DNA from: an uncultured Bacteroidota bacterium
GTDB taxonomy: Bacteria; Bacteroidota; Bacteroidia; Bacteroidales; DTGW01
Length of the DNA stretch: 64,000 nt
Assembly: GCA_963701015.1 (NCBI GenBank)
Contig: OY969556.1
Location: 229,186-293,185, forward strand
Direction: 5' to 3'
Both the position numbers and the translations under genes were made by a program. This document shows positions 33,383-56,087 of the stretch, piece after piece (position 1 is the first letter of the stretch; every line of letters begins with the position of its first letter). The notes below the pieces were generated by a model. That model did not search any database. It was not told where the DNA came from and saw nothing but the letters and a program-made list of their open reading frames with translations.

Positions 33383-33517
33383 TACCAACAGGTGCATTGT
33401 TGTTTAGTCTGTGCACTGAACAAAAGTGTTCTGATTTAGTTTATGATTTTGCCCAACAATAAATAGACAATACATATTTTTAAATTCCACCATAACAAAA
33501 TTGCCTGAACGTAAAGT
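33383..33517 (+). repeat. Degenerate attC-like site (divergent type)
   Basis: TACCAAC-aggtgcattgttg ... cataacaaaattgcct-gaac-GTAAAGT; 135 bp; arms partly complementary. Confidence 0.35.
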
Positions 33518-33540
33518 TAACAATCAATCAACAATAAGTT

Positions 33541-34098
33541 ATGACAACAGACGAATTTAAAGTGACAATCCATATGGTTTCAAGTATCGACGGAATTATT
33601 GCCAAAAAAGACAATGATGTTTCGTGGTTTGAAACATCAAGCAATTATGAAAAAGGAATCACCGAACAAAACCCTGAAGAATTTCTTAAACCAATTGAAT
33701 GTTATATAATGGGGTCTCGGACTTATGAACTTGCTTTGGAACTCTCAAAGTCTTATGGATGGGCTTATGGAGAGAAACCAACAGTAGTATTAACTAATAG
33801 AATTCTTCCAAAAAATCGAAAAAATATTGAGTTTTATTCGGGCGACTTGACCAAACTTGTAAACGAACAATTGAAACCAAAATATAAAAATGTATGGGTT
33901 GTTGGTGGTTCTATCCTTGCCAAAGATTTTATTCAACAAAAATTAGTTGACGAAATTAGAATAAGTATTTTGCCGATTATTTTAGGTGATGGGCTTTTAT
34001 ATTTTGACCACATAGGACAAGAACAAGTATTACATCTTAAAAACACTACAGCTTATAAAAATGGAATGATAGAATTGCTTTACGAAATAAAAAAATAA
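33541..34098 (+). CDS. Dihydrofolate reductase-like (RibD C-terminal) protein
   Basis: SSIDGIIA, MGSRTY, WVVGG, LVDEI...PIILGDG. Confidence 0.85.
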   Translation: MTTDEFKVTIHMVSSIDGIIAKKDNDVSWFETSSNYEKGITEQNPEEFLKPIECYIMGSRTYELALELSKSYGWAYGEKPTVVLTNRILPKNRKNIEFYSGDLTKLVNEQLKPKYKNVWVVGGSILAKDFIQQKLVDEIRISILPIILGDGLLYFDHIGQEQVLHLKNTTAYKNGMIELLYEIKK

Positions 34099-34120
34099 GA
34101 ATGACAGAAGTAAATACTGC

Positions 34121-34251
34121 CTGTATCTTCGACTCAAACTCAATACGTGTTATAGATGTTTCACAAGTTCAGTGTTTTCAAATTATATTAGTGTAGCAGT
34201 ATTTATTCTGCAAGTTATTCTCACACTTTGCATTGCAGAGGAACGATTGCG
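34121..34251 (+). repeat. Degenerate attC-like site
   Basis: Shares caagttcagtg...aattata...tag...tgcaagt core with 43572/47002/54194; ends CTGTATC and GATTGCG are mutated. Confidence 0.6.
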
Positions 34252-34280
34252 AATATTATTTAGATGACATCAATTTCAAT

Positions 34281-36164
34281 ATGAAAAAAATTAATTTATT
34301 AAACAATGGGATTCCGATTTCTCCTTCATTAAGCCCAACTTTAGAGGCAGAAGATTTTGAACCAAGAATAGGAGAAAACAAAAAAAGACTTCTGATAGTT
34401 TCATTTGTTGCTTTTTTAATTGCAGCATCCATGAGTTTTATTGCAAAGTTTTTGGTTCTACTTATTGATTTATTCACCAATATATCATTTCATGGAATTT
34501 TTTCATTTTCACATTCAACTCCTGTCACAAATTCACTCGGAATTTTTGTAGTAATAATTCCTGTTATTGGAGGAATTATAGTTGGTTTGATGGCGCTCTA
34601 TGGCTCAAAAGCGATACGTGGACATGGTATTCCAGAAGCAATGGAGCAGATTCTAACCAATGAAAGCAAAATAAAACCTACAATAACTTATTTAAAGCCA
34701 CTTTCCTCTGCAATAGCAATAGGAACAGGTGAGCCATTCGGAGCAGAAGGCCCTATCATTGCCACAGGCGGAGCCCTGGGTTCTACCATCGGACAGCTAT
34801 TAAAAATATCTCATAATGAACGAAAAATATTATTGGCTGCTGGAGCAACAGCAGGAATGGCTGCAATTTTTGGGAGTCCGGTTGCAGCAATTTTCTTAGC
34901 AATCGAATTATTATTATTTGAATTTTCGCCACGTTCACTTATTCCTGTTGCAATTGCATGTATTGTTGGTGCTGCTGGTCATCATCTGTTATTCGGGCAA
35001 GAACCTGTTTTTAGGATGAATTCAATATCAATACCATCAAACAAATCTCTTTTAGTTTATAGTATAATGGGTGTTATTATAGGAGTTCTTTCTGTCGGGG
35101 TTAGCAAATCAGTTTATTTTGTTGAAGAAGTATTTGAAAAAATTCCTGTTCACTGGATGTGGTGGCCTGCTATAGGTGGACTATTGGTTGGAATGGTCGG
35201 TTATTTAGCTCCTCGTACTCTCGGAGTTGGATACGAAAACATTACGGATGTTCTTTCTGGTAGCTTAACAATGCAGGTAATTTTATCATTGTTTCTTTTA
35301 AAATTTATTTCTTGGGCAATTGCATTGGGTAGTGGAACTTCCGGAGGAACTTTAGCTCCATTACTTACAATTGGCGGTGCGGCAGGAGCATTATTGGGAA
35401 TTGAGATAATTAAATTCTTTCCTCAATTTGGTATTACAATTCCACTTGCAGCCTTGGTAGGTATGGCTTCTATGTTTGCTGGCGCATCAAGAGCATTATT
35501 GACTTCAATTATTTTTGCTTTGGAAACAACTTCTCAGTCTAACGCTTTACTTCCTCTCCTTGGTGCCTGTCTTGGATCTTATTTAGTTTCTTTTTTTCTA
35601 ATGGAGAACACAATTATGACAGAAAAAATTGCTCGAAGGGGTGTTAAAACTCCACACTCATATGAACCCGATATATTGGAAAGACTAACAGTTGACCAGG
35701 TTATCAATGATTTTGAAATAGTATTTAATGAAGATGATAGCATAAAGAAAGTAATAGAATGGTTAAGTCAAGAAATAAACTATCAGTCAAATTATTTTGT
35801 TATTTCAAATATTGATGGAGAATATAAGGGAATACTGAGTTCTTCAATTTTATTTAACAACCAGAATTTTTTGGAAAATAAAATCGGAACATTATTAAAG
35901 AGCAATAACGCATCTGTAAGGTTAAAAGACACACTCCGAATTGCTGCTGAAATTATGGCGAAAGAAAATATTGATGTTTTGCCGGTTGTTGAAGAAAACA
36001 ATATCGTTGGCATTGTGTCCTATCGTGACATTCTTGCATCATACAAACATAGGACTGACAATCATGAAATGAAAAAGCCTCACATTTCATTTAAACGGGA
36101 AGGCTTAAAAATATTAATACGTGGAAAGAAAATGGTTTCTGTCATGAAACGAAAAGACAAATAG
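34281..36164 (+). CDS. ClC chloride channel family protein with CBS domains
   Basis: GHGIPE, GAEGP, GTSGG motifs; C-terminal CBS pair; start set to ATG 34281. Confidence 0.9.
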   Translation: MKKINLLNNGIPISPSLSPTLEAEDFEPRIGENKKRLLIVSFVAFLIAASMSFIAKFLVLLIDLFTNISFHGIFSFSHSTPVTNSLGIFVVIIPVIGGIIVGLMALYGSKAIRGHGIPEAMEQILTNESKIKPTITYLKPLSSAIAIGTGEPFGAEGPIIATGGALGSTIGQLLKISHNERKILLAAGATAGMAAIFGSPVAAIFLAIELLLFEFSPRSLIPVAIACIVGAAGHHLLFGQEPVFRMNSISIPSNKSLLVYSIMGVIIGVLSVGVSKSVYFVEEVFEKIPVHWMWWPAIGGLLVGMVGYLAPRTLGVGYENITDVLSGSLTMQVILSLFLLKFISWAIALGSGTSGGTLAPLLTIGGAAGALLGIEIIKFFPQFGITIPLAALVGMASMFAGASRALLTSIIFALETTSQSNALLPLLGACLGSYLVSFFLMENTIMTEKIARRGVKTPHSYEPDILERLTVDQVINDFEIVFNEDDSIKKVIEWLSQEINYQSNYFVISNIDGEYKGILSSSILFNNQNFLENKIGTLLKSNNASVRLKDTLRIAAEIMAKENIDVLPVVEENNIVGIVSYRDILASYKHRTDNHEMKKPHISFKREGLKILIRGKKMVSVMKRKDK

Positions 36165-36202
36165 TAGGGTTTCAAGAAGAGGATACCGCTGCAAAGTACT
36201 AA

Positions 36203-36301
36203 AAATTGAATGAAATTGAATGAAATTGAATGAAATTGAATGAAATTGAATGAAATTGAATGAAATTGAATGAAATTGAATGAAATTGAATGAAATTGAA
36301 T
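36203..36301 (+). repeat. Perfect tandem repeat (TGAAATTGAA)x9 plus a partial unit
   Basis: Directly visible at 36211-36300; overlaps the GNAT start codon. Confidence 0.97.
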
Positions 36302-36796
36302 AATAAAAAAATACTGATTCGACTAGCAAAACTGAACGACCTTACTGCATTACAAGAGCTTTTTGTTGATACAATTGAAGCTGTTTGCCGTAACCATTAT
36401 TCGCCGGAACAAATTGCAGTTTGGACTTCATCAATTGAAAATACACAACGTTGGACTGATAAATTGGTGAAACAATATTTCATTATTGCAGAAATCGACA
36501 ACAAGATAGTTGGATTTGCTTCGTTAGAAAATAATGAATATTTAGACTTTATGTATGTTCACAAAGATTATCAAAGACAAGGTATTGCAGATAATCTTTA
36601 CTCGGAAATATTAGCCAAAGCAATTAAACACGGTACAACATTATTGACATCTGATGTTAGTATTACGGCCAGGCCATTTTTTGAGAAAAAAGGATTTAAA
36701 CTAATAGCAGAACAAAAAATTAACATCAAAGGTGTTGAAGTTATTAACTTTAAAATGACTTTAGAATTGAAATTAGAAAAAACAAAGAATTCCTAA
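36290..36796 (+). CDS. GNAT-family N-acetyltransferase (YafP-like)
   Basis: YVHKDYQRQGIA acetyl-CoA motif, SITARPFFEKKGF; stop codon lies inside a TCCTAAC R''-like box. Confidence 0.88.
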   Translation: MKLNNKKILIRLAKLNDLTALQELFVDTIEAVCRNHYSPEQIAVWTSSIENTQRWTDKLVKQYFIIAEIDNKIVGFASLENNEYLDFMYVHKDYQRQGIADNLYSEILAKAIKHGTTLLTSDVSITARPFFEKKGFKLIAEQKINIKGVEVINFKMTLELKLEKTKNS

Positions 36797-36966
36797 CACT
36801 GTATTTATTGGTTTCAGAGGCAAACCGAGCCCACCGCTCGCTTTTTTCTCAGATGGGTCTCTCTAAGAAGACCCTGATGCAAGGCAATATAGCTTAGGAA
36901 AGTGCTGCTTAACAAATGTGCATCAGTCATGGATTGTGCTGTAAAGCTTGCCTATAATCTTATACT

Positions 36967-37422
36967 TTATTTTCCTGTATTGGCATTATTTGGGAAACTT
37001 ACTCCTGGCCCAAAGAAACATTCATTTTCTATTATTTTACCATCTTTAAATTTAAAACGCTCGGTGTTCCGAAATAATTTGTTGTCTGTAGTCCAGCCAT
37101 TGTATGTAACATAGGCACAATCTCCGTCAATTATAACCTTTTCAAGGTCAAACTTTTTGGTTTTATAGGCATTGGGCCAACACCTTTCCTTGTATAGCTT
37201 TAAACCAATGTGATTATCACCTGCCGGACTGCTGAACGTAAACCCTTTTGCAAGAATAGGTTCCATTAAACCCCAATCCTTCTGCTCATATGCCCTGTAA
37301 TAATCATTAATCATTTGCCGGGCAGAGGTATTCTTATTCAAACTGGTACAATTGCTGCAAAGCAATACCAAGCTGATTGATAAAAAGAATATAGTTCCGT
37401 TTTTTATAAATACATTTTTCAT
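36967..37422 (-). CDS. SnoaL/NTF2-like lipoprotein
   Basis: Signal peptide with Cys; YYRAYEQKDW, FTFSSP, FRNTERFKFKDGKI. Confidence 0.75.
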   Translation of the reverse strand: MKNVFIKNGTIFFLSISLVLLCSNCTSLNKNTSARQMINDYYRAYEQKDWGLMEPILAKGFTFSSPAGDNHIGLKLYKERCWPNAYKTKKFDLEKVIIDGDCAYVTYNGWTTDNKLFRNTERFKFKDGKIIENECFFGPGVSFPNNANTGK

Positions 37423-37763
37423 TTTTTATAGTATTATATTTTGCCATCAAAAAATGTTAGTGAATTATATCATTTCAATAACTTTAATTTAGGACAATAT
37501 AGTTTTAATTTCCCCTTATACTCAATTTGATATTTTATAGAATAGTAATTAGGAGTAATAACTATTGAATGTCTGCTTATATCTATTCTATTGTTTTCGG
37601 TTGCCATACACTTATTTTTATCCATTCCTGTGAGTGCCATTAAGTGAAATTGCATGGTTATGTCCAGTTATTAATTCAAGATAACAATTTTTTAATCAAA
37701 TAATGCAGTGTAAAAAACATCGTGTAACTTTGATAGCGTTTTAATTCATAAAAATAAAATGCA

Positions 37764-40430
37764 GTGAAATCAGGCAAGCGAATATCTACTATATCCCATG
37801 GGAAAAAATCATCAACAAAATTGAATAGTAATATTTTTCCTATAGTCGGAATTGGTGCTTCAGCGGGTGGGTTGGAAGCTTTGGAACAATTTTTCGAAAA
37901 TATGCCTTCTAACAATGGAATGGCTTTTGTAGTAATCCAGCACCTCGATCCTAAATATCCCGGTATTTTGCCAGAGCTTTTGCAACGTATAACACCTATG
38001 AAAGTGCAACAAGTGACCGATCTTCTTAAAGTAAAACCCGATTGTGTATATGTAATTCCTCCTAACAAAAGCCTTTCTATACTTAATGGAGCGCTGCATT
38101 TGTTTGCCCCGGTTGAAACACATGGTTTACGTTTGCCAATTGATACATTTTTAAGATCTCTGGCAGATGACAGGCACGAAAAAAGTGTAGCTATTATTCT
38201 CTCTGGTATGGGCTCTGATGGTTTTTTAGGAGTTAAAGCTATTAAAGAAAAAAATGGCACAGTGTTGGTGCAGGAACCTTCCACGGCCAAATTCAATGGA
38301 ATGCCAAACAGTGTTATTGAAGCTGTATTTCCCGATATTATTGCTCCTGCTAACGAATTAGCCATTAAACTTGTCGATTATATGAAATTTGTTCCCTCTA
38401 TTAAAATAAGCAGGGAATTAAATAATAAACATAAAAGCAATATTGATAAAATTATTATTTTGCTCCGCCAACAAACGGGTCACGACTTTTCATTGTATAA
38501 GAAAACTACCTTATTTCGCCGCATAGAACGACGCAAAGGCATTCACCAATTAGATAAGATACAGAATTACGTCCGCTTTTTACAGGAAAATCCTAAGGAA
38601 ACCGAGATACTTTTCAAAGAATTGCTCATTGGTGTTACCAGTTTTTTCCGCGATACTATTGTTTGGCAAACGCTCCGGAATGACATTTTACCTGCACTAA
38701 TAAACCAAATGCCCGACGGCAAAGTTATGCGGGCATGGGTGGCGGCTTGTTCTACCGGTGAAGAAGCATACTCCTTGGCAATTGTTTTTAAGGAGGCATT
38801 GGAAAAAGTTAAAAAGTATAAAAATATATCGTTGCAGATATTCGCAACCGATCTTGATCAGGATTCAATTGATAAGGCGCGTAAAGGTGTATTTCATCCA
38901 AACATTATTGCTGATGTGTCGTCCGAACGCCTTAACCGTTTTTTCATCAAAGAAGCGCATGGATATAGGGTGAATAATGCCATACGTGAAATGATAGTGT
39001 TTGCTCCACATGATATTATTAAGGACCCGCCTTTTACGAAACTCAATATACTAACATGCCGTAATATGCTCATATATATGGAGCCTGAATTACAGAATAA
39101 ACTCATTAGCATGTTTAATTACAGCCTTCTGCCAAATGGTATATTAACGATAGGCACTGCTGAATCACTTGGTACAAAAAAACTAGGATTCATTGAAATT
39201 GATAACAAATTGAAAATTTATAAACGTACTGCAAATATTGATTCACCAGCTCTGATTGATTTTCCCAGCACCTTCAATCGACAAAAAATAAAGAGCAATC
39301 AAAAGAAAGCACCCATGAAAATAGTTGATAATATCCAGAACATTGCCGACCAGATTTTGCTTCAACGCTTTTCACCTGCCAGTGTATTGGTTAACGACAA
39401 AGGCGACATTATATATATAACAGGACGTACCGGAAAGTACCTCGAACCGGTTGCCGGAAAAGCCAACTGGAACATTTTTGCCATGGCACGTGAAGGCTTG
39501 CGTGAGGAGTTACCCGGAGCTTTTCGAAAAGCTATGCAAAACTTCGACCCAGTAATTGTGCATAATATAAAAGTTGAAGATAACGGGGAAATACAATTTA
39601 TTGATTTGAAAATACAACGTATAGAAGCCCCCGATGCTATCAAAGGAATGATTATGTTAGTATTTACAGATATCTCCGCTCCTGCTAAACTTCAGGCAAC
39701 CATATCCAAATCAGGAAAAAGAGGATCAACTTTAGCAATGAAAGAATTAGAAAATGAGCTACAACGGAATCACGAAGAACTTCAAATTACACGTGAGGAG
39801 ATGCAGACATCGCAGGAGGAATTGAAATCGACTAACGAGGAATTACAATCAACCAATGAAGAATTGCAATCGACCAACGAGGAATTGCAATCAGCCAATG
39901 AAGAATTGCAATCGACCAACGAAGAACTCATTACCTCAAAGGACGAAATGAAACGGTTAAACGAAGAATTGCACACAGTTAATTTAGAGCTACAAAGCAA
40001 AGTGAGTGATTTTACATTAGCTAGCAGCGATATGAAAAACTTACTCAACAGTACCGAAATTGGAATTCTATTTCTAGATAAGAATTTGAATATTCGCAGG
40101 TTCACAAATCCAATTACCAAAATATTTAAAATCCGCTGTACCGATATTGGCCGACCATTTACCGAACTGGTGAGCGTTCTGAAGTACCCCCATATTGATA
40201 ATCATGCCCTTCAGGTACTCAAAACACTAATACCCATTGAAACTTCAATAGCAACTGACAATGGTAATTGGTTTACTATTCGTATTTTGCCCTACCGAAC
40301 GGTTGATGATCGAATCGATGGACTCGTTATTACATTTAACGATATAACAGTTGCGAAAAAATTGGAAATTGAACTTAAAAAAGCAAGTATTGAAATACAG
40401 AACCTGGGAAAAGTTAACAGAAAAAAATAA
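37764..40430 (+). CDS. CheB/CheR fusion protein with PAS and coiled-coil regions
   Basis: GIGASAGG and ILSGMGSDG (CheB); VTSFFRD, CSTGEEAYS, CRNMLIY (CheR); EELQSTN heptads. Confidence 0.92.
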   Translation: MKSGKRISTISHGKKSSTKLNSNIFPIVGIGASAGGLEALEQFFENMPSNNGMAFVVIQHLDPKYPGILPELLQRITPMKVQQVTDLLKVKPDCVYVIPPNKSLSILNGALHLFAPVETHGLRLPIDTFLRSLADDRHEKSVAIILSGMGSDGFLGVKAIKEKNGTVLVQEPSTAKFNGMPNSVIEAVFPDIIAPANELAIKLVDYMKFVPSIKISRELNNKHKSNIDKIIILLRQQTGHDFSLYKKTTLFRRIERRKGIHQLDKIQNYVRFLQENPKETEILFKELLIGVTSFFRDTIVWQTLRNDILPALINQMPDGKVMRAWVAACSTGEEAYSLAIVFKEALEKVKKYKNISLQIFATDLDQDSIDKARKGVFHPNIIADVSSERLNRFFIKEAHGYRVNNAIREMIVFAPHDIIKDPPFTKLNILTCRNMLIYMEPELQNKLISMFNYSLLPNGILTIGTAESLGTKKLGFIEIDNKLKIYKRTANIDSPALIDFPSTFNRQKIKSNQKKAPMKIVDNIQNIADQILLQRFSPASVLVNDKGDIIYITGRTGKYLEPVAGKANWNIFAMAREGLREELPGAFRKAMQNFDPVIVHNIKVEDNGEIQFIDLKIQRIEAPDAIKGMIMLVFTDISAPAKLQATISKSGKRGSTLAMKELENELQRNHEELQITREEMQTSQEELKSTNEELQSTNEELQSTNEELQSANEELQSTNEELITSKDEMKRLNEELHTVNLELQSKVSDFTLASSDMKNLLNSTEIGILFLDKNLNIRRFTNPITKIFKIRCTDIGRPFTELVSVLKYPHIDNHALQVLKTLIPIETSIATDNGNWFTIRILPYRTVDDRIDGLVITFNDITVAKKLEIELKKASIEIQNLGKVNRKK

Positions 40431-40559
40431 TTATTATAAGTCAAATACTATGAACAATTAATAAAGTTAACAGTTTAGATAAATGCAAATGCGATAGGAT
40501 ATATTCATAGGAAAATAATTTTCTATAGATTGGGTTTCGGTTTTTAATTAGGTTATGCA

Positions 40560-41822
40560 ATGAAAAAAATCAAAGCACAATTAGGCATCCCAATCTTACG
40601 CACACAAGCGGAACTGATTCTTACAAAGAACCCAATAATGATTTCTTCAGAACTTTCAGAAGTTGGTGAACTCAAACTTATTCACGAACTTGAGGTTCAC
40701 CAGATTGAACTGGAATTACAAAATGAAGAACTCATTCGGGCGAAGGAAGCTGAAAAGGACGCGATTGAATTGTATGATTTTGCTCCCACGGGTTATTTTA
40801 CACTTTCACCAAATGGTGATATTATTGGGTTAAACCTCAATGCCGCATATATGCTTGGTATGGAACGGTCAGCTTTAATTCATAGCAGGTTTCTGCTTTT
40901 CCTATCAATTGATACAAAAGAAATATTCAATCATTTTCTCGAAAGTATTTTTCTCAAAAGGGTTAAAGAGTCTTGTGAAGTAACCATTTCAATTTCAGAC
41001 AAACCGCCAATTTTTGTTAGTCTTACCGGAATTGCTGATTATAACCATGAAAAATGTTTTATTACTGCAACTGATATTACTGAGCGTGAACTCGCTGAGG
41101 AAATTATCAAAATCAGAAACCATCAGCTAGTATTGGCCGATGCCCAAAAAGATCGTTTCATATCTATTCTCGCGCACGATTTAAAAAATCCGTTTGCTTC
41201 AATTCTTGGTTTTTTAGATTTATTGATCGAAAACATTAATGAATATCCTCAGGATAAAATTGAAGAACAACTTTCCATCATTTACCAATCGTCTCAAAAT
41301 GTATTTAAACTTCTCGAAAATTTATTACAATGGTCGCAGACGCAAAGGGGCAAATTAATTTGCGATCCACAAAGCATAAATTTTACTACTATTTGTGATG
41401 AAGTTATTAATAACCTAAGCCTTAATGCAAAGAACAAAAGCATAAATATTGATTATTCCGAAACAAATAATTTAACCGTTTTTGCAGATGCAAATCTTTT
41501 AAAAACTGTGATGCGAAACCTGGTATCAAATGCAATAAAATTTACCAATACCGGTGGAACAATCAATATTTCAGGTATAAGCGACTCCTCAAATGTAACA
41601 ATATCTGTTGCAGATAATGGAATAGGAATAGCTGCTGAAAATATACCTAAATTGTTTGACGCATCGCTAACACATTTAAAAATAGGCACAGCTAATGAAA
41701 AGGGAACAGGTTTGGGATTGTTTCTTTGTAAAAAATTTATAGAGAAACATTGTGGTAAAATATGGGTTGAAAGCGAATTAAATATAGGGACTACGTTCAG
41801 GTTTACGTTACCAGTGGAATAA
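40560..41822 (+). CDS. PAS-domain sensor histidine kinase
   Basis: AHDLKNP H-box, NLVSNAIKF, DNGIG, GTGLGL. Confidence 0.92.
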   Translation: MKKIKAQLGIPILRTQAELILTKNPIMISSELSEVGELKLIHELEVHQIELELQNEELIRAKEAEKDAIELYDFAPTGYFTLSPNGDIIGLNLNAAYMLGMERSALIHSRFLLFLSIDTKEIFNHFLESIFLKRVKESCEVTISISDKPPIFVSLTGIADYNHEKCFITATDITERELAEEIIKIRNHQLVLADAQKDRFISILAHDLKNPFASILGFLDLLIENINEYPQDKIEEQLSIIYQSSQNVFKLLENLLQWSQTQRGKLICDPQSINFTTICDEVINNLSLNAKNKSINIDYSETNNLTVFADANLLKTVMRNLVSNAIKFTNTGGTINISGISDSSNVTISVADNGIGIAAENIPKLFDASLTHLKIGTANEKGTGLGLFLCKKFIEKHCGKIWVESELNIGTTFRFTLPVE

Positions 41823-41846
41823 AATTGCTTTAAAATAATAAGAGCA

Positions 41847-45490: not shown

Positions 45491-45495
45491 TATGA

Positions 45496-46995: not shown

Positions 46996-47001
46996 AACTG
47001 T

Positions 47002-47132: not shown

Positions 47133-47173
47133 GTAATTGAAGAACTTATTGACAGTAAAGTAATTTTATAAGC

Positions 47174-48138: not shown

Positions 48139-48159
48139 ACAATACAAATACAAATTAAA

Positions 48160-48726
48160 ATGAGATCGATAATAGTAACTTTAGTAATACTAATTTCTAT
48201 TAAATCATTTAATCAGGAAGGAAAAAAATATGAATATAAAGAAATTGACTGTAAAGATGAGCAAGGAAAGCAGTATGATTTTATTGAAACAAATTTTAAC
48301 GTTGATGGGAGTGTATTAAGTAAAAAAGACTTACATATTGTAAATTATAGAGGTGTAATAGATATTTACTTTTATGCAAAAAAATTTCATTCTTTATTAC
48401 TTCCAGATAAGTTAGTTGACAATAGATACCACAATGATACTATTTTGATCTGGAATTATAAAGGCGATAAAGCGCAAGAATCAAAAAAATCTTTTGCCTA
48501 TGATTCTCTTTCTAGGTTAGTATTGTTTTCTTATTCAGGATGCCAAGTTTGTTCTCAATCTAAATATGATTATAAATTAGAATATGACTTCAAAAATAGA
48601 CCTAAGAACATAATCAATTTAAATGGTAATGACAGATATGAGATAATTTATGACAAAAATGGAGAAGTTACAGAACTTAGAAGTTATTCCTTTAATAAGT
48701 TATATCAAAAAGTAAAATTGAAATAA
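48160..48726 (+). CDS. Hypothetical secreted protein
   Basis: Signal-like N-terminus from ATG 48160; YD-like motifs near the C-terminus. Confidence 0.65.
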   Translation: MRSIIVTLVILISIKSFNQEGKKYEYKEIDCKDEQGKQYDFIETNFNVDGSVLSKKDLHIVNYRGVIDIYFYAKKFHSLLLPDKLVDNRYHNDTILIWNYKGDKAQESKKSFAYDSLSRLVLFSYSGCQVCSQSKYDYKLEYDFKNRPKNIINLNGNDRYEIIYDKNGEVTELRSYSFNKLYQKVKLK

Positions 48727-48735
48727 AAGTACTGT

Positions 48736-48855
48736 GTACAACAACAACTCAAATTCCATGCGGGCTTCAGAATGTTTGCAAGTTCAGAGTTTTCTGTGCA
48801 ACTGGATTTATATTGCAATTAAAACCCGCGCACTAATTAGCCGTAAACGTTGGCG
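48736..48855 (+). repeat. attC-like site (complete, short internal deletion)
   Basis: GTACAAC...TGCGGG...CCCGCG...aattagccgtaaac-GTTGGCG; 120 bp. Confidence 0.8.
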
Positions 48856-48898
48856 GCCAGCAATAAGAACATTATTATTAACTAAATACTAATTTACT

Positions 48899-49771
48899 AT
48901 GAAAAAAATTTCGTTTATTTTCTTATCATGTATATGTACATGTTTGCTTTTTAGTCAAGAAAAAGAGATAAAAGTAAAGAAAGACATTGTTTATCTTGAT
49001 GGAACTCCAGTAGTTAAAATGATTGGGAAATGTGGCGTTTTTACTAGGCTTAATTACACATTCATATCCTTAAAGGGAGATACATTATTTACTATGAAAG
49101 ATAATTTTTATAAATATTCCAACCCTTATTATGGTACAACAACTTGGTTTGACATAAATTTTTTAAAATTAAAGAAGCAATTAATGTTAATCAGAGAACA
49201 TACACTTGTAAACGATAAGCAAGTTGTAAAATATGTATTACTAACATTAAATCCTTTTATTATAAAAGATGGGGAATTAGACACATCAGCAGTTGCCCAA
49301 GTAATACAAAAGCAAGATTATCGGAATACATTTATAGCTGATACGACCTATAAGTTAGGATTTGACAGAAAAAAGAATATGATATTAGACAAATCATATA
49401 TAAAAAGAGACATAAATAAACCCATAATTGTTGCAGATGCAACCATACATCCAGAATTAAAAGGATTTAATAATTATAAATTATATGAAATACAACAGGA
49501 TAAAGTTTTGATTGGATTAATAGTAGAAGTAAATGGAATGGAAACTACATCAAGAAAAATATCATATTACTTTTTACGAAAGTTAAATGAGCCAATGGAA
49601 TATCAAGGAGAGCATTATCCATTTGTAATGGTAGCATTAATAGATGATAGTTTTCAGGGATTTTTAGTTAGTACCTATAAAAAGGAATCTATGTTTTATA
49701 CTGCTCCACAAAACTCTACTAATAAATTTTTAGATTATGCAAAACATTTAGTAGATATTAAAGATTTGTAA
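48899..49771 (+). CDS. Hypothetical secreted protein
   Basis: Signal peptide; 290-aa ORF; flanked by GTTGGCGGCC and GGCCGCCAAC. Confidence 0.75.
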   Translation: MKKISFIFLSCICTCLLFSQEKEIKVKKDIVYLDGTPVVKMIGKCGVFTRLNYTFISLKGDTLFTMKDNFYKYSNPYYGTTTWFDINFLKLKKQLMLIREHTLVNDKQVVKYVLLTLNPFIIKDGELDTSAVAQVIQKQDYRNTFIADTTYKLGFDRKKNMILDKSYIKRDINKPIIVADATIHPELKGFNNYKLYEIQQDKVLIGLIVEVNGMETTSRKISYYFLRKLNEPMEYQGEHYPFVMVALIDDSFQGFLVSTYKKESMFYTAPQNSTNKFLDYAKHLVDIKDL

Positions 49772-49865: not shown

Positions 49866-51693
49866 GAAGGTGTCTCAAAAGTCGAGGCACCTTTTTTTGT
49901 TAATAAAAAGTTCATAAAAAAGGCTCATTAATTTAATCATTTATCTTGTTTAGTTGTCTCATTATCAAAAGTATGAGACATGTATAACCAAAGATCAAAA
50001 GTAGTTTTTAAAGACTACAGTCCCAATCAAATCATGTTACTTCCCCCATCACTGGAGGAGTTCATAGATGCAAACCATCCAGTTCGGGTTGTAAACAAAG
50101 TCATTGACAGTATTAACGCTGATGCATTGCATAAACAATATAAAGGAGGTGGCACCTCAAGCTATCATCCTCGGATGTTGCTGAAGGTTCTTATATACAG
50201 TTACCTGAACAATGTATATAGTAGTCGTAAAATGGAAACAGCCTTAAAAGAGAACATTCATTTTATGTGGCTGAGTGCTATGAACCACCCTGATCATAAT
50301 ACACTTAATCGATTTAGAAGTGATAGGCTCAAAAATGTTTTAAAAGAAATATTTGCACAAGTAGTCATGTTATTAGTGGAATCGGGACATGTAAGCCTTC
50401 AGGAAATCTATGTTGATGGGACCAAAATAGAATCCAAGGCTAATCGTTATACTTTCGTTTGGGGCAATTCCATAAAGACCAATAAGGAGAAAATGGTGGC
50501 ACAACTAAAAGAGTTATGGGATTATACCCAATCGTTAGCCAAAGAGGAATTACAAGATACAGATAATGTTGACTTTACCCAAATAGATGCAGAAAAAGTA
50601 AAACGGACTATTAATCAAATAGATCAAGCATTATCTGATAAAAAGGTTGACAAGAAAGTAAGACAGAAATTAAATTACGCTCGCCAACATTGGCCACAAA
50701 ATCTCAACAAGTACAAGGAGCAAGAGCAGATATTAGGCAAACGGAACTCGTATAGTAAAACAGACCCTGGGGCAACCTTCATGCGAATGAAAGAAGATCA
50801 CATGAAAAACGGTCAGTTGAAACCAGGATATAATGTTCAGATAAGCACTAATAATCAATATATTGTAAACTATAGCCATCACCCCAATCCAACCGATACA
50901 ACCACATTAAGGCCTCATTTGGAACAGTTCCACACCCTGTATAACAATTATCCTAAAGTAGCTGTGGCAGATGCTGGTTATGGTTCAGAAGAAAATTACG
51001 CATTGTTAGAAAAGGCAAAAATAGACGCTTATATAAAGTTTAACTATTTTGACAAAGATCAACGCAAAATTAAGAACTCTCTCAATAGCAATTTATTCTA
51101 CAACTCTGAAAAGAACTGCTACTATTGTCCAATGGGTCAACCGATGAATTACATTGGCTCAATCAAACGAGTTACAGAAAACGGTTTTGAGCAACAAATA
51201 TCTCGTTACCAAGCTATTAATTGCAGTACATGCCCATTGCGTGGAGCTTGTCATAAAAGTAAGAAGAATAAAATAATAGAAATTAATCATAATCTAAACC
51301 GACTAAAGGCCCAAGCATCAGAACGCTTGAAGAGTGAGCAAGGGCTTTACTACCGAAGTAAAAGAGGGGTTGATGTTGAACCCGTTTTTGCCAATATCAA
51401 GTTTAATAAAGGATTTAAGCGTTTTGGACTTAAAGGAATGTTAAAAACAGAAATTGAAATGGGCTTACTAGCGTTGGCACACAATTTAGCAAAAAGAGCA
51501 GCATAGGCTGCTTTGCCATCCTCTTAGGAAGGCAACAAATGTCCTATATCGTAATTATTAAATTATTATCAAAAAAATCTAAATCGATCAAACAAAAAAA
51601 TAATCTACCATAAAACATTTTGATCAGTTCAAAAAAATTCTACGTTTTTTAACCAAAAAAAGACCATCTCATTTTTACTTTTGAGACGGCCTC
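49866..51693 (+). mobile_element. IS1182-family insertion sequence, copy 2 (1828 bp)
   Basis: Same ends and identical 508-aa transposase as copy 1. Confidence 0.92.
49980..51506 (+). CDS. IS1182-family DDE transposase
   Basis: Protein identical to that of 22468-23994. Confidence 0.93.
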   Translation: MYNQRSKVVFKDYSPNQIMLLPPSLEEFIDANHPVRVVNKVIDSINADALHKQYKGGGTSSYHPRMLLKVLIYSYLNNVYSSRKMETALKENIHFMWLSAMNHPDHNTLNRFRSDRLKNVLKEIFAQVVMLLVESGHVSLQEIYVDGTKIESKANRYTFVWGNSIKTNKEKMVAQLKELWDYTQSLAKEELQDTDNVDFTQIDAEKVKRTINQIDQALSDKKVDKKVRQKLNYARQHWPQNLNKYKEQEQILGKRNSYSKTDPGATFMRMKEDHMKNGQLKPGYNVQISTNNQYIVNYSHHPNPTDTTTLRPHLEQFHTLYNNYPKVAVADAGYGSEENYALLEKAKIDAYIKFNYFDKDQRKIKNSLNSNLFYNSEKNCYYCPMGQPMNYIGSIKRVTENGFEQQISRYQAINCSTCPLRGACHKSKKNKIIEINHNLNRLKAQASERLKSEQGLYYRSKRGVDVEPVFANIKFNKGFKRFGLKGMLKTEIEMGLLALAHNLAKRAA

Positions 51694-52105
51694 TTTTTTT
51701 ATCCTTAATTTTTAATTAGCGCATGTCTTTAATATTAACAAACCCTGACAGGCTTATGCTTAATCAAAGCTCAACAATTATTAAATTCCCTTACAATCTG
51801 TTTTGTAAAAAACCCTGTCAGGGTTATTTGTCAATAACTACAGCTTATTTTAAAAATTAACCGTTATTTATACCCATTCTAAGGCATTTATATCAAATAA
51901 CTTTTTACTTTTAAAGTGAAAATCAGGGGAATTTGTGGGCAGGGATATTTTAATTGTAAAATGAAATGAAAATTCACCCTATAATGGCAATTATCTGTAC
52001 ATAATTGGAAATAAAAACACCATGGCATTGTGCTTATATGCAAGTTTTACAAAATAAATCATTAGTCATATATTAAAATTTTAATTATTTTAACACAAAT
52101 TTATT

Positions 52106-52960
52106 ATGAAAAAAATTAGTTTATTTTTAACCTTTATTTTCTTATTTTCAATTGGTTTTTCACAACAAGACTCCCTCTTAAAAAGTAAAAGCGGTAAAAT
52201 AATTTTACCGCAACAAGGTGATTATGCTATTGGATTATCCGTTAATTCAATATTTAATTATTTAGGGAATATGTTTAGTAGTTCTGGGAATAATCAATTT
52301 AATATAAACCTTTTAAATGGGAATCAAATATTCGGAAAATATTTTCTTTCTAGTCAAAGTGCAATCCGTGTAAAATTTTCGATAAACAAAAATTCACAAA
52401 ATTATGAAAACAACGTAGTCGATGATTATAATAATAATAATATGGTAACAGATAAATTAAATTATACGAATACAAGTTTAGATATGACGGTTGGTTTTGA
52501 AAAACGCAAAGGATCAGGTCGCCTCCAGGTTTCATATGGCGCCGAATTTACTTTTGGATATTCTGGTTATGATAATAAATATACTTATGGTAATTCATTT
52601 TCATTCAATAATACCGTTCCTACTTCAACATTTAATTTCTATAACTATAATGGTAATAACACAAATAGTAATCGCACATCAAATCGTATTCTTGAAACTA
52701 AACAAGATAATGGAATAGGAATAGGGATTAGGGCTTTTACCGGCATTGAATATTTTATATTTCCCAAAATATCGGTAGGAGGTGAAATAGGACTAAGTTA
52801 TTTCAATGATTTTAATGGGAAGAGTTCAAATACTTATCAATATTGGGATTATGTGAATAACAATGTTTCAACTAACAACAATGAAATTAAAAATAATTCT
52901 TATAATATTAACACTGACATTTTGAATGGACAGGTTTTTTTACTATTTCATTTTAGATAA
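52106..52960 (+). CDS. Outer-membrane beta-barrel protein
   Basis: Signal peptide, alternating beta strands, GIEYFIFPKISVGGE, terminal FHFR. Confidence 0.75.
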   Translation: MKKISLFLTFIFLFSIGFSQQDSLLKSKSGKIILPQQGDYAIGLSVNSIFNYLGNMFSSSGNNQFNINLLNGNQIFGKYFLSSQSAIRVKFSINKNSQNYENNVVDDYNNNNMVTDKLNYTNTSLDMTVGFEKRKGSGRLQVSYGAEFTFGYSGYDNKYTYGNSFSFNNTVPTSTFNFYNYNGNNTNSNRTSNRILETKQDNGIGIGIRAFTGIEYFIFPKISVGGEIGLSYFNDFNGKSSNTYQYWDYVNNNVSTNNNEIKNNSYNINTDILNGQVFLLFHFR

Positions 52961-52973: not shown

Positions 52974-53382
52974 CTATAACATTAGCTCATACAACACACT
53001 CCCCCGCTATGCGTAGTTTGCATCTACGCTTTTTTTATCTTTAATTTTTAATTAGCGCATTTCTTTAATTTCAACAAACCCTGACAGGCTTATGCTTAAT
53101 CAAAGCTCAACAATTATTAAATTCCTTACAATCTGTTTTGTGAAAAGCCCTGTCAGGGTTATGTGTCAATAGCTACAGCCTGTTTTAAAAATTAACCGTT
53201 ATTTATACCCATTCTAAGGCAATTATATCAAATATCTTTTTACTTTTAAGGTGAAAATCAAGGGAATTTGTGGGTAGGGATAATTTAATTGTAAACTGAA
53301 ATAAAAAATTAAACCTATATTGGCAATTATCTGTACATAATTGGAAAGATAAATTTCATGTTATTTCGCATATAAGTTATTA
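52974..53382 (+). repeat. Long inter-cassette module, copy C
   Basis: CTATAAC, REP-like hairpin 53001-53031, CCCTGACAGG IR, palindrome 53324-53343, GTT at 53376. Confidence 0.85.
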
Positions 53383-53462
53383 GCAACAATTATAGCGTGA
53401 ATCGTAATTAATAATTATTTTGAACAAATATTTTTAATACGACAAATAAACAAAAATAAACT

Positions 53463-54137
53463 ATGGCTCATCAACATCATTATGTAATAATCAAAGGTGA
53501 AAATGGCAATCCAAGTCAGCATCCTCTTAAGACTTGGGTAAGACAAAACTTAAATTTTTTACCTCAAGGACTTGACCCCGACTTTCAAACATCTCATAAA
53601 GTTAGACGAATACTATCACAAAACGGGTGGCATTTAGAATTCACAGACACCGAAGTATTTGTTATTAGGCCGGATGACAATGGAAATTTTGATTATACGA
53701 ATAATTATGTTGCAGAAATTCAAAAAGAAGAAGATGATGAAATAATGGAGAATGAAGACGCATATGAAATTACTTTTGGTCTTGAAAAAGATTTACAATC
53801 TGCACTTCGTAAAAATATTGAATCATTAGAAAAAGGACTGACAATTATCGATGATGGGAAAGAGAGAACTACAATAGCTGGCAGAATTGATATTACAGCA
53901 AAAGACAATGCCAATCGGACTGTTATTATAGAACTAAAAGCTGTTGATGCAAAACCAGATGTAATTGCACAAACTTTGGCTTATATGGAAGCGGTAAAAG
54001 CGGAAGACAAAGTTGAAGTACGTGGAATAATTATAACAAGCGGTTTCCCTGACAGGGTTAAATTAGCAGCAAGACAAATTAGTAATTTAAAACTTGTAAA
54101 ATATTCTTTTCAATTTACTTTTAACATTATTGAATAA
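53463..54137 (+). CDS. Protein with C-terminal NucS/EndoMS-like PD-(D/E)xK nuclease domain
   Basis: LEKDLQ..L...GRIDITAKD...VIIELK...Q...Y motif; unknown N-terminal domain. Confidence 0.8.
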   Translation: MAHQHHYVIIKGENGNPSQHPLKTWVRQNLNFLPQGLDPDFQTSHKVRRILSQNGWHLEFTDTEVFVIRPDDNGNFDYTNNYVAEIQKEEDDEIMENEDAYEITFGLEKDLQSALRKNIESLEKGLTIIDDGKERTTIAGRIDITAKDNANRTVIIELKAVDAKPDVIAQTLAYMEAVKAEDKVEVRGIIITSGFPDRVKLAARQISNLKLVKYSFQFTFNIIE

Positions 54138-54193
54138 AATATAACATTACGAATAATGAAAAGAATAGTGTCTCAGATGAAAATTATAAATGC

Positions 54194-54322
54194 CACCAAC
54201 ATCGTCATATAAAATGCGGGTTATAGAGCGGTTCAAGTCTATTGCTTTATAATTATATTTGTTTAGTTGGTTTTATTTTGCAAGTAAATCCCGCACTAAG
54301 TTGTAGTCGGGGAAAGTTATGT
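54194..54322 (+). repeat. attC-like site (complete)
   Basis: CACCAAC-atcgtcatataaaaTGCGGG ... CCCGCA...tagtcggggaaa-GTTATGT; 129 bp. Confidence 0.8.
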
Positions 54323-54349
54323 CGCATTAATAATAAAAATACTGTTACA

Positions 54350-55939
54350 ATGATACAAGATAGATTAATTATGCAGGCTGTTTCAAAAATTCATCAGCGT
54401 GCAGATAGACAAGAAAAAATTGAAAAGATAGTAAATACCTATGTTGAGATAGGTATTTTGCCACAACTATTGAATAAAAATAATCAAATAATTTATGGCA
54501 GACGAGGAACTGGAAAGACTCATATATTAAGAAAACTTGAGGATGATTTAATTAAATCAAAGGATGAGAAAAATCTTGTAACATATATAGATGCAAGATA
54601 TTTGGGAAGTAGCCCCCAATATACTGATACAGCTTCATCTCTTAGAGTTCGCTGTCAATCATTGTTTAATGATGTTCTAAAGGAAATATACTATACAATT
54701 CTTCAACATTTAATTGAATTTCCTAACGAAAACGCAAATCGAGCATTTGATGCACTTGAAAATTTTAATAAATCAAGCAATGTTGAGATTTATTCTTCAA
54801 AATCTATTTCACAAAAAGAACAAATTGCTAATAAGGATAGTTCGAATGCTGGTATAGATATATCTCCAAATACTATTGCAATAAAGTTTGGTGCATCTTC
54901 AATTGAAGAATTAAATAAAGAGCGAACAATTACTTATAGCATAGAAGATGAACAAAAGATTTTATTTCCTGACATTAATTTCTTTCTAAAAAGTGTTCTT
55001 GAATTATCAGATACTAATTTATTCCTTTTATTTGATGAATGGGCTACTATTCCTTTTGATATCCAACCTTATTTGGCTGAATTTTTTAAACGTAGCTTTT
55101 TGCCAAACCAAAGAATTACATTAAAAATTGCATCATTGGAATATAGGTCAAACTTTACAATCCCCAAAGAGAAACATAATTATATAGGTTTTGAATTGGG
55201 TAGTGACATAGCAACTAATTTAGATGTTGATGATTACTATGTTTATGATAGAAATCCAAAGCATATTTCAGATGTATTCGCTGAAATATTATTTAAACAT
55301 ATTGAAAGTGAACTTCCAGAAAATTACTTAATCTCAAATTATAATATCTCAAATTCTAAAAAGTTTATTCAAACTATTTTTACCAATATAAATGTTTTTA
55401 ATGAACTTGTTAGAGCAGCAGAGGGTGTAATTAGAGATTTAATAATTATTTTTTCAATTTCGTTTTTTGATTCTCAAAGATTCAGTCGTAAGAATATTGA
55501 TAAAAAAACAATTATTGAGTCAGCAAGACAATGGTTTGAAAAGGATAAAGCTAAAAATCTCGATGAAAATTTACAAGATATACTAAGAAGAATAGTTGAT
55601 GAAGTTATTGGAACACGCAGAGCTCGTTCTTTTATGATTCCTCGTGATTTAGAGAAACATGATATAATACAAAAATTATTTGATTCAAGGGTTTTGCACT
55701 TAATAAAAAGAGGCTATGCTGATAAAATAAATCCGGGTATAAGATATAATGTTTATACTTTAGATTTTGGTACTTATGTTGACCTTATACAGACAAGTAA
55801 AGAGCCGGAAATTGACTTTACTAATTCAGAAATTAGTGAAAGTGAAGAATTTATTGTACCATTTGATGATAAGAGAAGTATTAGAAGAATAATTCTGACA
55901 GAACAAATTTTTAACGCCCATACTGGCACGAGTTTATAA
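54350..55939 (+). CDS. P-loop ATPase (ORC/CDC6- or STAND-like) of unknown function
   Basis: Walker A GRRGTGKT, Walker B LFLLFDE; start set to ATG 54350. Confidence 0.8.
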   Translation: MIQDRLIMQAVSKIHQRADRQEKIEKIVNTYVEIGILPQLLNKNNQIIYGRRGTGKTHILRKLEDDLIKSKDEKNLVTYIDARYLGSSPQYTDTASSLRVRCQSLFNDVLKEIYYTILQHLIEFPNENANRAFDALENFNKSSNVEIYSSKSISQKEQIANKDSSNAGIDISPNTIAIKFGASSIEELNKERTITYSIEDEQKILFPDINFFLKSVLELSDTNLFLLFDEWATIPFDIQPYLAEFFKRSFLPNQRITLKIASLEYRSNFTIPKEKHNYIGFELGSDIATNLDVDDYYVYDRNPKHISDVFAEILFKHIESELPENYLISNYNISNSKKFIQTIFTNINVFNELVRAAEGVIRDLIIIFSISFFDSQRFSRKNIDKKTIIESARQWFEKDKAKNLDENLQDILRRIVDEVIGTRRARSFMIPRDLEKHDIIQKLFDSRVLHLIKRGYADKINPGIRYNVYTLDFGTYVDLIQTSKEPEIDFTNSEISESEEFIVPFDDKRSIRRIILTEQIFNAHTGTSL

Positions 55940-56087
55940 CACGTGCCCCCGCTGACGCTCACTTGCTAGCGCAAGTGTCCGATTGTGCTAAATATGCTTT
56001 TGAAAAATTCAATAGTTTATTAAAATAAGATAGTACAGGTTAAAAGCTTGAACAGACCCCCGCTGGCGCGAGTTTGTAACGCGTGCC
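55925..56087. repeat. Cluster of three REP-like GC-rich hairpins
   Basis: ggcacgagtttataacacgtgcc (55925), tagcgcaagtgtccgattgtgcta (55967), ccccgctggcgcgagtttgtaacgcgtgcc (~56058). Confidence 0.7.

Follow-up and report, generated by a model that had tools for sequence, protein, structure and literature searches.

Within a 64-kb stretch of a Bacteroidota chromosome (hereafter called the window; G000:C1:229186-293185, from the complete, single-contig genome G000 of 4.47 Mb with 32% G+C), open reading frames (ORFs) are separated by copies of an imperfect palindrome that resembles the attC sites of integrons. Are these repeats the recombination sites of a gene-cassette system, and if so, which enzyme moves the cassettes? 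Integrons, the textbook system of gene capture and shuffling, take their definition from a single integrase family, and they are considered rare in Bacteroidota. According to the available part of the report on IntegronFinder 2.0 (10.1101/2022.02.28.482270), only In0 elements and one complete integron have been reported in Bacteroidetes. An earlier reading of the window from its letters alone (the sequence-only reading) proposed a cassette-capture system of attC-like sites served by a tyrosine recombinase encoded elsewhere. In the present study, we compared the sites, their arrays, and the recombinase genes in this genome, in its relatives, and in other Bacteroidota. We found that the repeats are, with high probability, attC-like recombination sites of an integron-like gene-cassette system that would be run by a non-canonical, Xer-like recombinase. 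No description of such a system was found in the searchable literature, which was mostly without subscription journals and supplements, and a prior description is possible; it is likewise not described in the available parts of PMC8618304, 10.1101/2024.07.02.601686, and PMC13616975.

Five repeats of the window can be aligned over about 150 nt. An nhmmer profile built from them retrieved 204 matches in the genome, 187 of them at E<1e-3, and this retrieval of many further copies supports the five window sites independently of the covariance model described below. The 187 copies form 18 clusters, each confined to one strand, with the copies following ORFs, and the median spacing in the seven clusters of at least six copies (Table 1) is 808-1970 bp. 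As a count of cassettes, 187 is too low, because short divergent site variants ending in ..ACCGTT escape the profile. The copies are thus not scattered without regard to gene boundaries or orientation, a pattern that would have spoken against the sequence-only reading; nor do they resemble miniature inverted-repeat transposable elements (MITEs) or repetitive extragenic palindromic (REP) elements, which lie in either orientation and independently of gene boundaries, whereas here the single-strand clusters have a regular spacing of 0.8-2 kb after ORFs. The cumulative GC skew places the origin at about 4.07 Mb and the terminus at about 1.47 Mb, by which the arrays are co-oriented with replication; the curve is irregular, and this placement is tentative.

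The element is 130-150 bp long and recurs in the co-oriented arrays about every 0.8-1.1 kb. In the consensus of 141 full copies, the left arm consists of a variable stretch of 7-10 nt, C-Y-AAC, A-Y, CGGYT(C)A, six variable nucleotides, and A-TGCGGG; the centre is a loop of about 70 nt; and the right arm consists of CCCGCA-C, six variable nucleotides, TAGCCG, 2-3 nt, AAACGTT, R-G, and a further variable stretch. Every site forms an imperfect palindrome, with outer AAC/GTT boxes, a 6-bp L''/L' stem, a variable covarying stem, and a TGCGGG/CCCGCA stem. Both AAC and CGTT are retained in 122 of the 141 copies, and the extra C of the left arm (consensus column 29) is found in 105 of them. The consensus that the sequence-only reading had drawn from the window, including this extra C, agrees with that of the 141 copies.

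In integrons, the crossover takes place within the GTT of R', and a cassette starts with the tail of the preceding site, which matches the R'' of its own site. We found this relationship between neighbouring sites in the genome. In 111 adjacent pairs, complementarity between the 7 nt preceding AAC in site i+1 and the 7 nt following GTT in site i is 66-85% per position. The corresponding ranges are 29-52% with the site's own tail, 29-61% when the order is reversed, and 29-55% when sites are paired at random. By mutual information, the nine strongest couplings between sites all join columns 9-18 to columns 142-151 in antiparallel order, and every one of the four Watson-Crick types is seen among them. 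In 52 adjacent pairs from other taxa (Flavobacterium and other loci), the score is 0.85-0.94 at seven of nine positions, compared with 0.29-0.76 within the sites themselves. Linkage within a site extends to column 133, and linkage between sites begins at column 142; therefore, by these signatures, the crossover lies within columns 134-141, which contain AACGTT.

The inner stems covary as well. Columns 31/126, 33/124, 34/123, and 36/121 are paired in 79-91% of the sites, compared with 31-61% at random, with three or four pair types each. Of the 21 pairs in an alignment of 27 sequences (four genomes, three genera), 10 have changed on both sides, and 86% of the cells are paired, compared with 27-41% when the partner is slid by one to three columns. 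The observed covariation was reached by none of 500 shuffles on four of five measures and by one of 500 on the fifth (further pair types). The signal within sites is partly due to two or three sequence subfamilies; in distant taxa, the stem sequences are entirely different and the pairing is kept. Covarying stems had been set beforehand as a check on the sequence-only reading, and from this covariation we conclude that the pairing is under selection.

Comparison of 118 inter-site segments, all against all, showed that several occur twice at 99-100% identity in different arrays. In five of nine duplicate pairs inspected, both ends lie at the site core, from (AA)CGTT upstream to ..AACGTT downstream, and the flanks are unrelated; two further pairs have only the right boundary at AACGTT, and the boundaries of the remaining two lie elsewhere. 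Two cassettes that are neighbours at 1.80 Mb are split by an extra cassette at 2.07 Mb. By their sequences, the near-identical cassettes in different arrays are the product of recent duplication or movement. The sites are attC-type imperfect palindromes (R''/R', L''/L', extra base) and the cassette boundaries lie at the G/TT of R'; cross-site complementarity, covarying stems, and AACGTT-bounded duplicates together support the cassette-capture system that had been proposed for the window.

The sequence-only reading noted the absence of an integrase, which holds for the window and for canonical IntI. TIGR02249 had no match over its 265-bit cut-off in G000, elsewhere among the 10 genomes of the family, or in five further genomes of the order that bear arrays; this set of 15 genomes includes two complete array-bearing genomes besides G000. 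G000 has 10 tyrosine recombinase genes and eight Y1 transposase matches, and no serine recombinase. Its best IntI-like gene (C1:3281295-3282410, minus strand) encodes a 372-aa Xer/IntI-like tyrosine recombinase. The genome has three further Xer-like genes, with products of about 300 aa. The 372-aa protein scores 221.4 bits with NF040815 (XerA-type), marginally over the cut-off of 220, and 214.7 bits with TIGR02249. When it is aligned to VchIntIA (2a3v), IntI residues 184-241 are skipped against 16 query residues, and because they are unmatched, the candidate is taken to be without the insertion that defines IntI. According to the accessible text of a preprint on archaeal integrons (10.1101/2022.02.06.479319), the additional domain around patch III is the defining feature of integron integrases, and a survey of tyrosine recombinases describes the insertion, in the part available, as 'not fully conserved' in the integron-like subgroup (PMC8138268). 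The candidate carries about 100 extra N-terminal residues outside the NF040815 profile. Its AlphaFold model (predicted local distance difference test score, pLDDT, 88.5) has XerA 5hxy and IntI 2a3v as the best structural matches (XerA 5hxy: 141.6 bits by sequence; Foldseek E 5.7e-16). The N-terminal domain is modelled as a small beta/alpha unit with a pLDDT of about 95 over residues 1-70; its VIA matches are the N-terminal domains of UvsW (Z 7.3, root-mean-square deviation 2.0, 62 aligned) and XPB (Z 7.0, deviation 1.7, 57 aligned), a likeness that is a lead only, since VIA Z values under 8 are common among unrelated models. All of 35 homologues share the catalytic residues R, K, H-x-x-R, H, and Y. 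Most likely, the enzyme of the system is a tyrosine recombinase of the Xer/IntI clade, of 345-390 aa, without the IntI insertion and with an N-terminal beta/alpha domain of about 75-100 aa, which would replace the insertion in site recognition. In its sites and cassettes the system is that of an integron and in its integrase it is not, which places it outside the canonical family.

Shorter relatives of the recombinase were also observed. In G123:C1, a complete genome of the order, copies stand at 13 places (e.g., 1867055-1983115): one is full-length, and the other 12 belong to a 300-aa relative without the N-terminal domain (E about 1e-64). Relatives without this domain (49-53% identity) are also found on plasmids of Acinetobacter, Klebsiella, and Aeromonas, one of them annotated as TnpF. 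In these relatives, the same catalytic core seems to have been put to a separate mobile use, in multiple copies.

A tight, oriented link between the recombinase family and the arrays was seen in other genomes. We constructed a covariance model, R1, with a training set of 27 sequences that includes the five full window sites, and used it to search 80 loci around homologues of the recombinase (47-72% identity) in named Bacteroidota, covering 626 kb upstream and 287 kb downstream of the genes. The loci come from Flavobacterium (among them F. psychrophilum DSM 3660), Pedobacter, Algoriphagus, and Kaistella, as well as from metagenome-assembled genomes of Chitinophagales, Crocinitomicaceae, and Ignavibacteria. 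All 87 R1 matches lie downstream of the recombinase gene and on its strand, and 33 of the 46 loci with at least 1.5 kb of downstream sequence have at least one match. In 34 of the 80 loci, the contig stops less than 1.5 kb past the gene, as is expected if repeats break assemblies. Sites stand beside homologues in records of Flavobacterium, Pedobacter, Algoriphagus, Chitinophagales, and Ignavibacteria. In two genomes from other families of the order, G114 and G044, the first site follows 1-2.3 kb after the homologue and on its strand, and in G082, of another family as well, the corresponding position is taken by a pseudogene. The proposal that a tyrosine recombinase encoded elsewhere serves the window array thus gained support, by inference in the case of the 372-aa candidate, and through homologues directly upstream of arrays in other Bacteroidota. 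In G003 and G004, the ORFs upstream of the array starts, which were considered as recombinase candidates, are not recombinases of this kind and include genes for IS1 and rve transposases and a PfkB kinase.

To look for an attI-like site, we sought the reverse complement of the R'' of the first detected site between the recombinase gene and that site. The best match is a GTT past the stop codon in 24 of 36 loci, 71-109 nt away in 23 of them and 169 nt away in one; its surroundings are conserved, with a short hairpin and then TATA-rich sequence adjoining the GTT. For most of the remaining 12 loci, the match is preceded by a typical right arm, from a site that had gone undetected. On this comparison, we take the conserved GTT after the recombinase gene to be a putative attI-like site.

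Sites and recombinase also tend to occur in the same genomes. At E<=1e-5, R1 found sites in 59 of 151 sampled genomes of the order (149 genera), and the recombinase profile at E<=1e-60 found 76 of the same genomes; 44 have both, 15 sites only, 32 the recombinase only, and 60 neither (odds ratio 5.5, Fisher p 2e-6). Eight of the 10 genomes of the family of G000 have at least one site, with counts of at least 150 in G000, 130 in G002, 93 in G003, 31 in G004, 1 in G005, 3 in G006, 1 in G007, 2 in G009, and none in G001 and G008. A plasmid of Chryseobacterium sp. (NZ_CP041688.1; positions 11974-22113 of the locus) encodes a homologue with 55% identity; small genes on the same strand and two R1 sites come after it. 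A search for sequencing runs listed four soil-metagenome runs from two studies, all with small shares (0.05-0.14) and no RNA run among them.

The loop of the site contains a further conserved feature. TAnnTTTG is found in the loop of 128 of the 141 sites, and the full TTTG-N19-21-TAnnTTTG in 86 of them, in the family of this genome. In the part of PMC7366714 available, the latter sequence is given as the promoter consensus of the primary sigma factor of Bacteroidetes. To judge from the motif, each site may drive the next cassette, so that each cassette may be transcribed. An isolated weak R1 match in the window at 30357-30420 (20.1 bits, E 0.0028), which covers only the loop part (model positions 42-103), sits upstream of an amidase gene and outside the arrays; the loop may derive from a promoter module or may have spread as one.

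In the scheme that we favour, a cassette would be the DNA from just past one GTT, through one or two ORFs, to the AACGTT of the next site. Site-specific recombination, its crossover inside AACGTT, would excise and insert the cassettes, and the 372-aa type of recombinase would catalyse the reaction, possibly on folded single-stranded DNA. In most Bacteroidota examined, the gene is found just upstream of the array on the same strand, with the attI-like GTT about 70-110 nt past its stop codon; in G000, where the gene lies at 3.28 Mb and apart from every array, it would, if acting, act in trans on the scattered arrays. In the family of G000, the promoter motif of the loop points at the next cassette, whose transcription it may drive.

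Several observations weigh against this scheme. All of its support is comparative, and recombination itself is read from sequence signatures. Single copies folded alone as single-stranded DNA are no stabler than shuffles (z +1.1 to -1.3); the loop of about 70 nt is unpaired, whereas canonical attC sites are mostly paired; and counts of wobble pairs, used to find the strand that folds, show opposite trends in the two helices. The promoter-like motif is found in other taxa in only 22 of 84 sites forward, compared with 4 of 84 reverse and a background of 9%. In G000, no R1 site was found within about 15 kb downstream of the recombinase gene (best E 0.35), and the gene has no clear attI-like context. 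Homologues with 39-41% identity are present in G001, where R1 finds no site, and in G009, where it finds two only. Of the 151 genomes of the order, 32 have a recombinase and no detected site, and 15 the reverse; the limited reach of R1 and draft assemblies may explain such unmatched genomes. In the window itself, adjacent sites show no cross-site complementarity in our own reading of the sequences; one possible exception is the step from 48732 to 54190, where five of the first six bases after the GTT are complementary by eye.

Two of the arrays in G000 have a 404-aa integrase gene, divergently oriented, at their head (Arm-DNA-bind_5, SAM_5, and Phage_integrase domains in Pfam), and it belongs to inserted elements. 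Two related elements of 22-24 kb (C1 1770843 to about 1795030 and 2018164 to about 2040020) stand at the same position inside the attC-like repeat. Besides the CTnDOT-type integrase gene, each carries an HTH_17 excisionase-like gene and two ORFs, one of 315 aa and one of 662-680 aa that looks primase-like from its sequence. The junctions share a core that runs from the CCCGCA stem through the TAGC of L' (columns about 113-130), and paired GGTACAAC arm-type repeats are present at both ends of each element. The two elements have the features of CTnDOT-type integrative and mobilizable or integrative and conjugative elements (IMEs or ICEs), and the cassette system does not. As judged from the junctions, the elements target the sites with a crossover away from the AACGTT of the cassettes, and they have split formerly single arrays.

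This bears on the alternative in which the 404-aa integrase itself moves the cassettes, an obvious candidate from its adjacent, divergent position. The gene adjoins repeats in all four loci where it was found (twice in G000, and as orthologues in G002, C121, and G004, C21), and orthologues with 63-94% identity occur in three of the four many-site genomes of the family and in none of the other six. It was nevertheless rejected as the array integrase, since the junctions show IMEs inserted inside the repeat; the gene travels with an excisionase-like gene, the shared core is not the cassette AACGTT, the element ends carry arm-type repeats, and G003, with 93 sites in a genome that is 86% complete, has no orthologue. 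We hold this explanation to be very improbable. A slightly less improbable explanation, to which we nevertheless attach little weight, is that the arrays are ordinary clusters of attC sites lacking integrases (CALINs), built by a canonical IntI that has been lost or resides on another replicon, and that the Xer-like gene is not the enzyme. The AAC/GTT boxes, L stems, extra base, length of 130-150 bp, and cassette structure are indeed of the attC type, and the IntI score of the recombinase nearly equals its XerA score. On the other hand, none of the 15 genomes has IntI over the cut-off, and the position of all 87 sites downstream of the Xer-like gene, together with the conserved attI-like GTT, would be hard to explain if this gene were a bystander.

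The conserved loop with its promoter-like motif, the terminal inverted repeats, the MITE-like copy number, and the eight Y1 transposase matches would also be compatible with non-mobile intergenic elements (promoter or terminator modules, or REP- or MITE-like repeats that a transposase has spread) in arrays that arose by gene duplication. We give this possibility hardly any credence, as all 18 clusters follow ORFs on a single strand, the complementarity between sites has the cassette pattern, duplicated units end exactly at AACGTT beside unrelated neighbours, and the stems covary in other taxa despite their different sequence. Finally, the system may be real and extinct in G000, with fossil arrays and the 372-aa gene in another role, such as Xer-type dimer resolution. 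The gene adjoins no array, the window array is decayed with two of five sites intact, and the arrays are scattered and interrupted by IMEs and insertion sequence (IS) elements. Against extinction stand the retention of AAC and CGTT in most of the 141 sites, the 99.7-100% identity of several cassette copies between arrays, which points to recent movement, the intact catalytic residues of the recombinase, and the presence of the three other Xer-like genes of about 300 aa. We regard extinction in G000 as unlikely, and return to the cassette system run by the Xer-like recombinase.

The features of the window and the arrays of the genome are listed in Table 1.

Table 1. Arrays of attC-like sites in genome G000 and features of the cassette array in the window.
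Feature	Coordinates	Strand	Evidence and remarks
Array, 37 copies	genome 1724615-1770250	-	
Array, 15 copies	genome 1795029-1808051	-	
Array, 8 copies	genome 1851363-1861568	-	
Array, 34 copies	genome 1966950-2017565	-	
Array, 34 copies	genome 2040019-2098089	-	
Array, 27 copies	genome 2690689-2752324	+	
Window array, 6 copies		+	
Possible divergent or degenerate site	window 33383..33520	+	By eye ..CAAC left, ..AACGT right; no R1 match at E<=1, none by nhmmer
Cassette ORF, RibD_C (dihydrofolate-reductase-like)	window 33541..34098	+	Pfam PF01872, E 4.7e-17; ends 19 nt before site 34117
attC-like site, decayed: AAC to ATC, CGTT to CGAT	window 34117..34265	+	R1 117.6 bits, training-set member
Non-cassette-like block, 9.3 kb	window 34266..43567	.	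Pfam and ORF list; no R1 site inside
attC-like site, decayed: AAC to TTC, GTT gone	window 43568..43715	+	R1 111.9 bits, training-set member
Cassette ORF, RibD_C	window 43773..44366	+	Pfam PF01872, E 1.6e-16
Cassette ORF, glyoxalase/VOC	window 44484..44873	+	Pfam PF00903, E 2.1e-6
Left-arm remnant of site (R''-L''-like)	window 44896..44930	+	By eye only; no R1 or nhmmer match
Cassette ORF, VOC-like (3-dmu-9_3-mt / Glyoxalase)	window 45074..45490	+	Pfam PF06983, E 8.6e-7
Weak attC-like site, right arm conserved, CGTT to CCTT	window 45465..45609	+	R1 38.8 bits, E 9.1e-9, outside training set
Cassette ORF, DJ-1/PfpI	window 45619..46212	+	Pfam PF01965, E 4.3e-20
Cassette ORF, 259 aa, no family	window 46216..46995	+	No Pfam match
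Intact attC-like site, AAC and CGTT	window 46998..47146	+	R1 123.2 bits, training-set member
Cassette ORF, ICMT/PEMT methyltransferase	window 47174..47668	+	Pfam PF04140, E 7.3e-8
Second repeat family, copy 1	window 47739..48168	+	Repeat search, alignment
Cassette ORF, 203 aa, no family	window 48115..48726	+	No Pfam match
Intact attC-like site, AAC and CGTT, 10-nt loop deletion	window 48732..48869	+	R1 101.9 bits, training-set member
ORF, 290 aa, no family	window 48899..49771	+	No Pfam match
IS transposase (DDE_Tnp_1_6 / DUF772)	window 49980..51506	+	Pfam PF13751, E 9.1e-30
Second repeat family, copy 2	window 51693..52080	+	Repeat search, alignment
ORF, 284 aa, no family	window 52106..52960	+	No Pfam match
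Second repeat family, copy 3	window 53028..53416	+	Repeat search, alignment
Cassette ORF, NucS-like endonuclease domain	window 53463..54137	+	Pfam PF01939, E 7.7e-11
attC-like site, AAC kept, CGTT to AGTT	window 54190..54336	+	R1 122.7 bits, training-set member
ORF, ORC/CDC6-like ATPase domain	window 54242..55939	+	Pfam PF24389, E 1.5e-12

With filters off, R1 scored the five full window sites at 102-123 bits (E 3e-27 to 2e-33); such high scores are expected, because these sites belong to its training set. Six of the eight copies listed by the sequence-only reading were recovered, that is, the five full sites and the copy placed at 45496, which R1 extended to 45465-45609 and nhmmer matched in part (model positions 79-146); those placed at 44896 and 33383 were found by neither search. 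As had been described, the sites begin after a stop codon and end ahead of the next ORF; according to the ORF list and R1, full sites begin 3-53 nt past the stop codon. In the case of the last site, the listed TTG start of the ORF at 54242-55939 overlaps it, and the true start is probably later. The loss of AAC or GTT from some sites was also confirmed, both boxes being kept in only two of the five full sites (46998 and 48732), a lower proportion than in the genome as a whole.

Pfam bore out the gene calls for the two RibD_C ORFs (called DHFR-like), the two VOC ORFs, DJ-1/PfpI, ICMT, GNAT, the NucS-like nuclease, and the ORC/CDC6-like ATPase, and gave no match for the 259-aa ORF that had been called DoxX-like. 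Two exceptions that the sequence-only reading does not mention are the IS and the block between sites 34117 and 43568. The latter has large signalling and transport genes (two histidine kinases, a CheB/CheR-PAS fusion, and a ClC channel), GNAT, and, on the minus strand, SnoaL and an ORF of 229 aa. From its sites and gene content, the window array is a small, partly decayed outlier of the cassette system, interrupted by an IS and a non-cassette block.

A second repeat family was observed in the window. Its copies are about 390-430 nt long, with a terminator-like hairpin and an inverted repeat (AACCCTGACAGG / CCTGTCAGGGTT), and two of the window copies are preceded by an apparent shortened site (a left arm, then ..CCGTT or ..CCGCT). 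BLAST gave 25 pieces of this family in the genome, mostly within or near cassette arrays and on the array strand. Other repeats in the window are a perfect 10-bp tandem repeat of AAATTGAATG in about 10 copies at 36183-36321, between the ClC channel and GNAT genes; internal 21-bp (7-residue) repeats at 39795-39928 in the CheB-CheR-PAS fusion, which is 888 aa long (37764-40430); and 21-bp tandem arrays of 13 and 5 registers at 56931-57336 and 57363-57500, downstream of a gene for an SRAP (SOS-response-associated peptidase) protein. An Rfam scan of the window, with a collection that lacks the attC model of IntegronFinder, gave nothing at the repeats; its sole match was a DUF805b RNA motif at 24938-24973 on the minus strand (38.9 bits, gathering score 35.6).

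Among known systems, the superintegron of Vibrio cholerae, a sedentary chromosomal integron with homogeneous VCR attC sites, is a close parallel. Both have hundreds of co-oriented small cassettes, sites of about 120-150 bp that are highly alike within the genome, AAC/GTT outer boxes with inner stems and an extra unpaired base, a crossover at GTT, and a cargo of small accessory enzymes; the putative attI-like site beside the tyrosine recombinase gene in other Bacteroidota would be a further parallel. The system described here differs in that its recombinase lacks the IntI insertion, has an extra N-terminal domain, and is encoded by a gene co-oriented with the cassettes; that the spacer between outer and inner boxes is longer on the right arm than on the left; that the 70-nt loop is unpaired and conserved with a promoter-like motif; and that the arrays are split over many loci, unlinked from the recombinase in G000. 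An integrase gene on the cassette strand is also found in the 'inverted integrase' integrons of Spirochaetes, Chlorobi, Planctomycetes, and Cyanobacteria; their integrases retain the IntI additional domain, unlike the present recombinase. The window array is like a CALIN in being an attC-like cluster with no integrase nearby, although CALINs are defined by matches to the standard attC model, whereas these sites are known from R1 and nhmmer. By sequence and by structure, the recombinase is closest to archaeal XerA and to the bacterial dif recombinases XerC/XerD. Enzymes of the Xer type serve a single dif site on the chromosome, whereas this gene precedes arrays of tens of sites and its product has the added N-terminal domain.

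In canonical integrons, attC sites are the targets of group IIC-attC introns and IS1111-attC insertion sequences. The two IMEs in G000, at one fixed position of the repeat, resemble such elements, as do the IS110-family transposase and the group II intron reverse transcriptase found in opposite orientation in the array of the Chryseobacterium plasmid. The IMEs differ in using a CTnDOT-type integrase with arm-type sites, and we know of no report of a CTnDOT-type element that targets attC sites.

An integron-like system thus appears, from these comparisons, to be widespread in Bacteroidota and run by a recombinase without the defining feature of integron integrases. We lean, with little more than even confidence, towards the broader view that Bacteroidota carry an unrecognised, phylum-wide class of integrons, with an attI-like site, up to about 190 attC-like cassettes, and an Xer-like recombinase that never had or has lost the IntI insertion; its novel N-terminal domain, possibly one that binds structured DNA, would handle the folded sites, and some lineages would have a promoter at each site. 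If our reading is true, standard integron detection would miss the system, because it requires the IntI-specific domain, and the frequent breaks of assemblies after the recombinase gene would be explained. The additional domain would not be needed for cassette recombination at hairpin-like sites, and a second, independent set of structure-specific recombination sites would become available for study. Promoters at each site would allow the whole array to be expressed, and not the first cassettes only. Cassette genes would come into view in large numbers in Bacteroidota of environmental and host-associated origin, and plasmid-borne copies, as in Chryseobacterium, would provide a route of gene exchange within the phylum.

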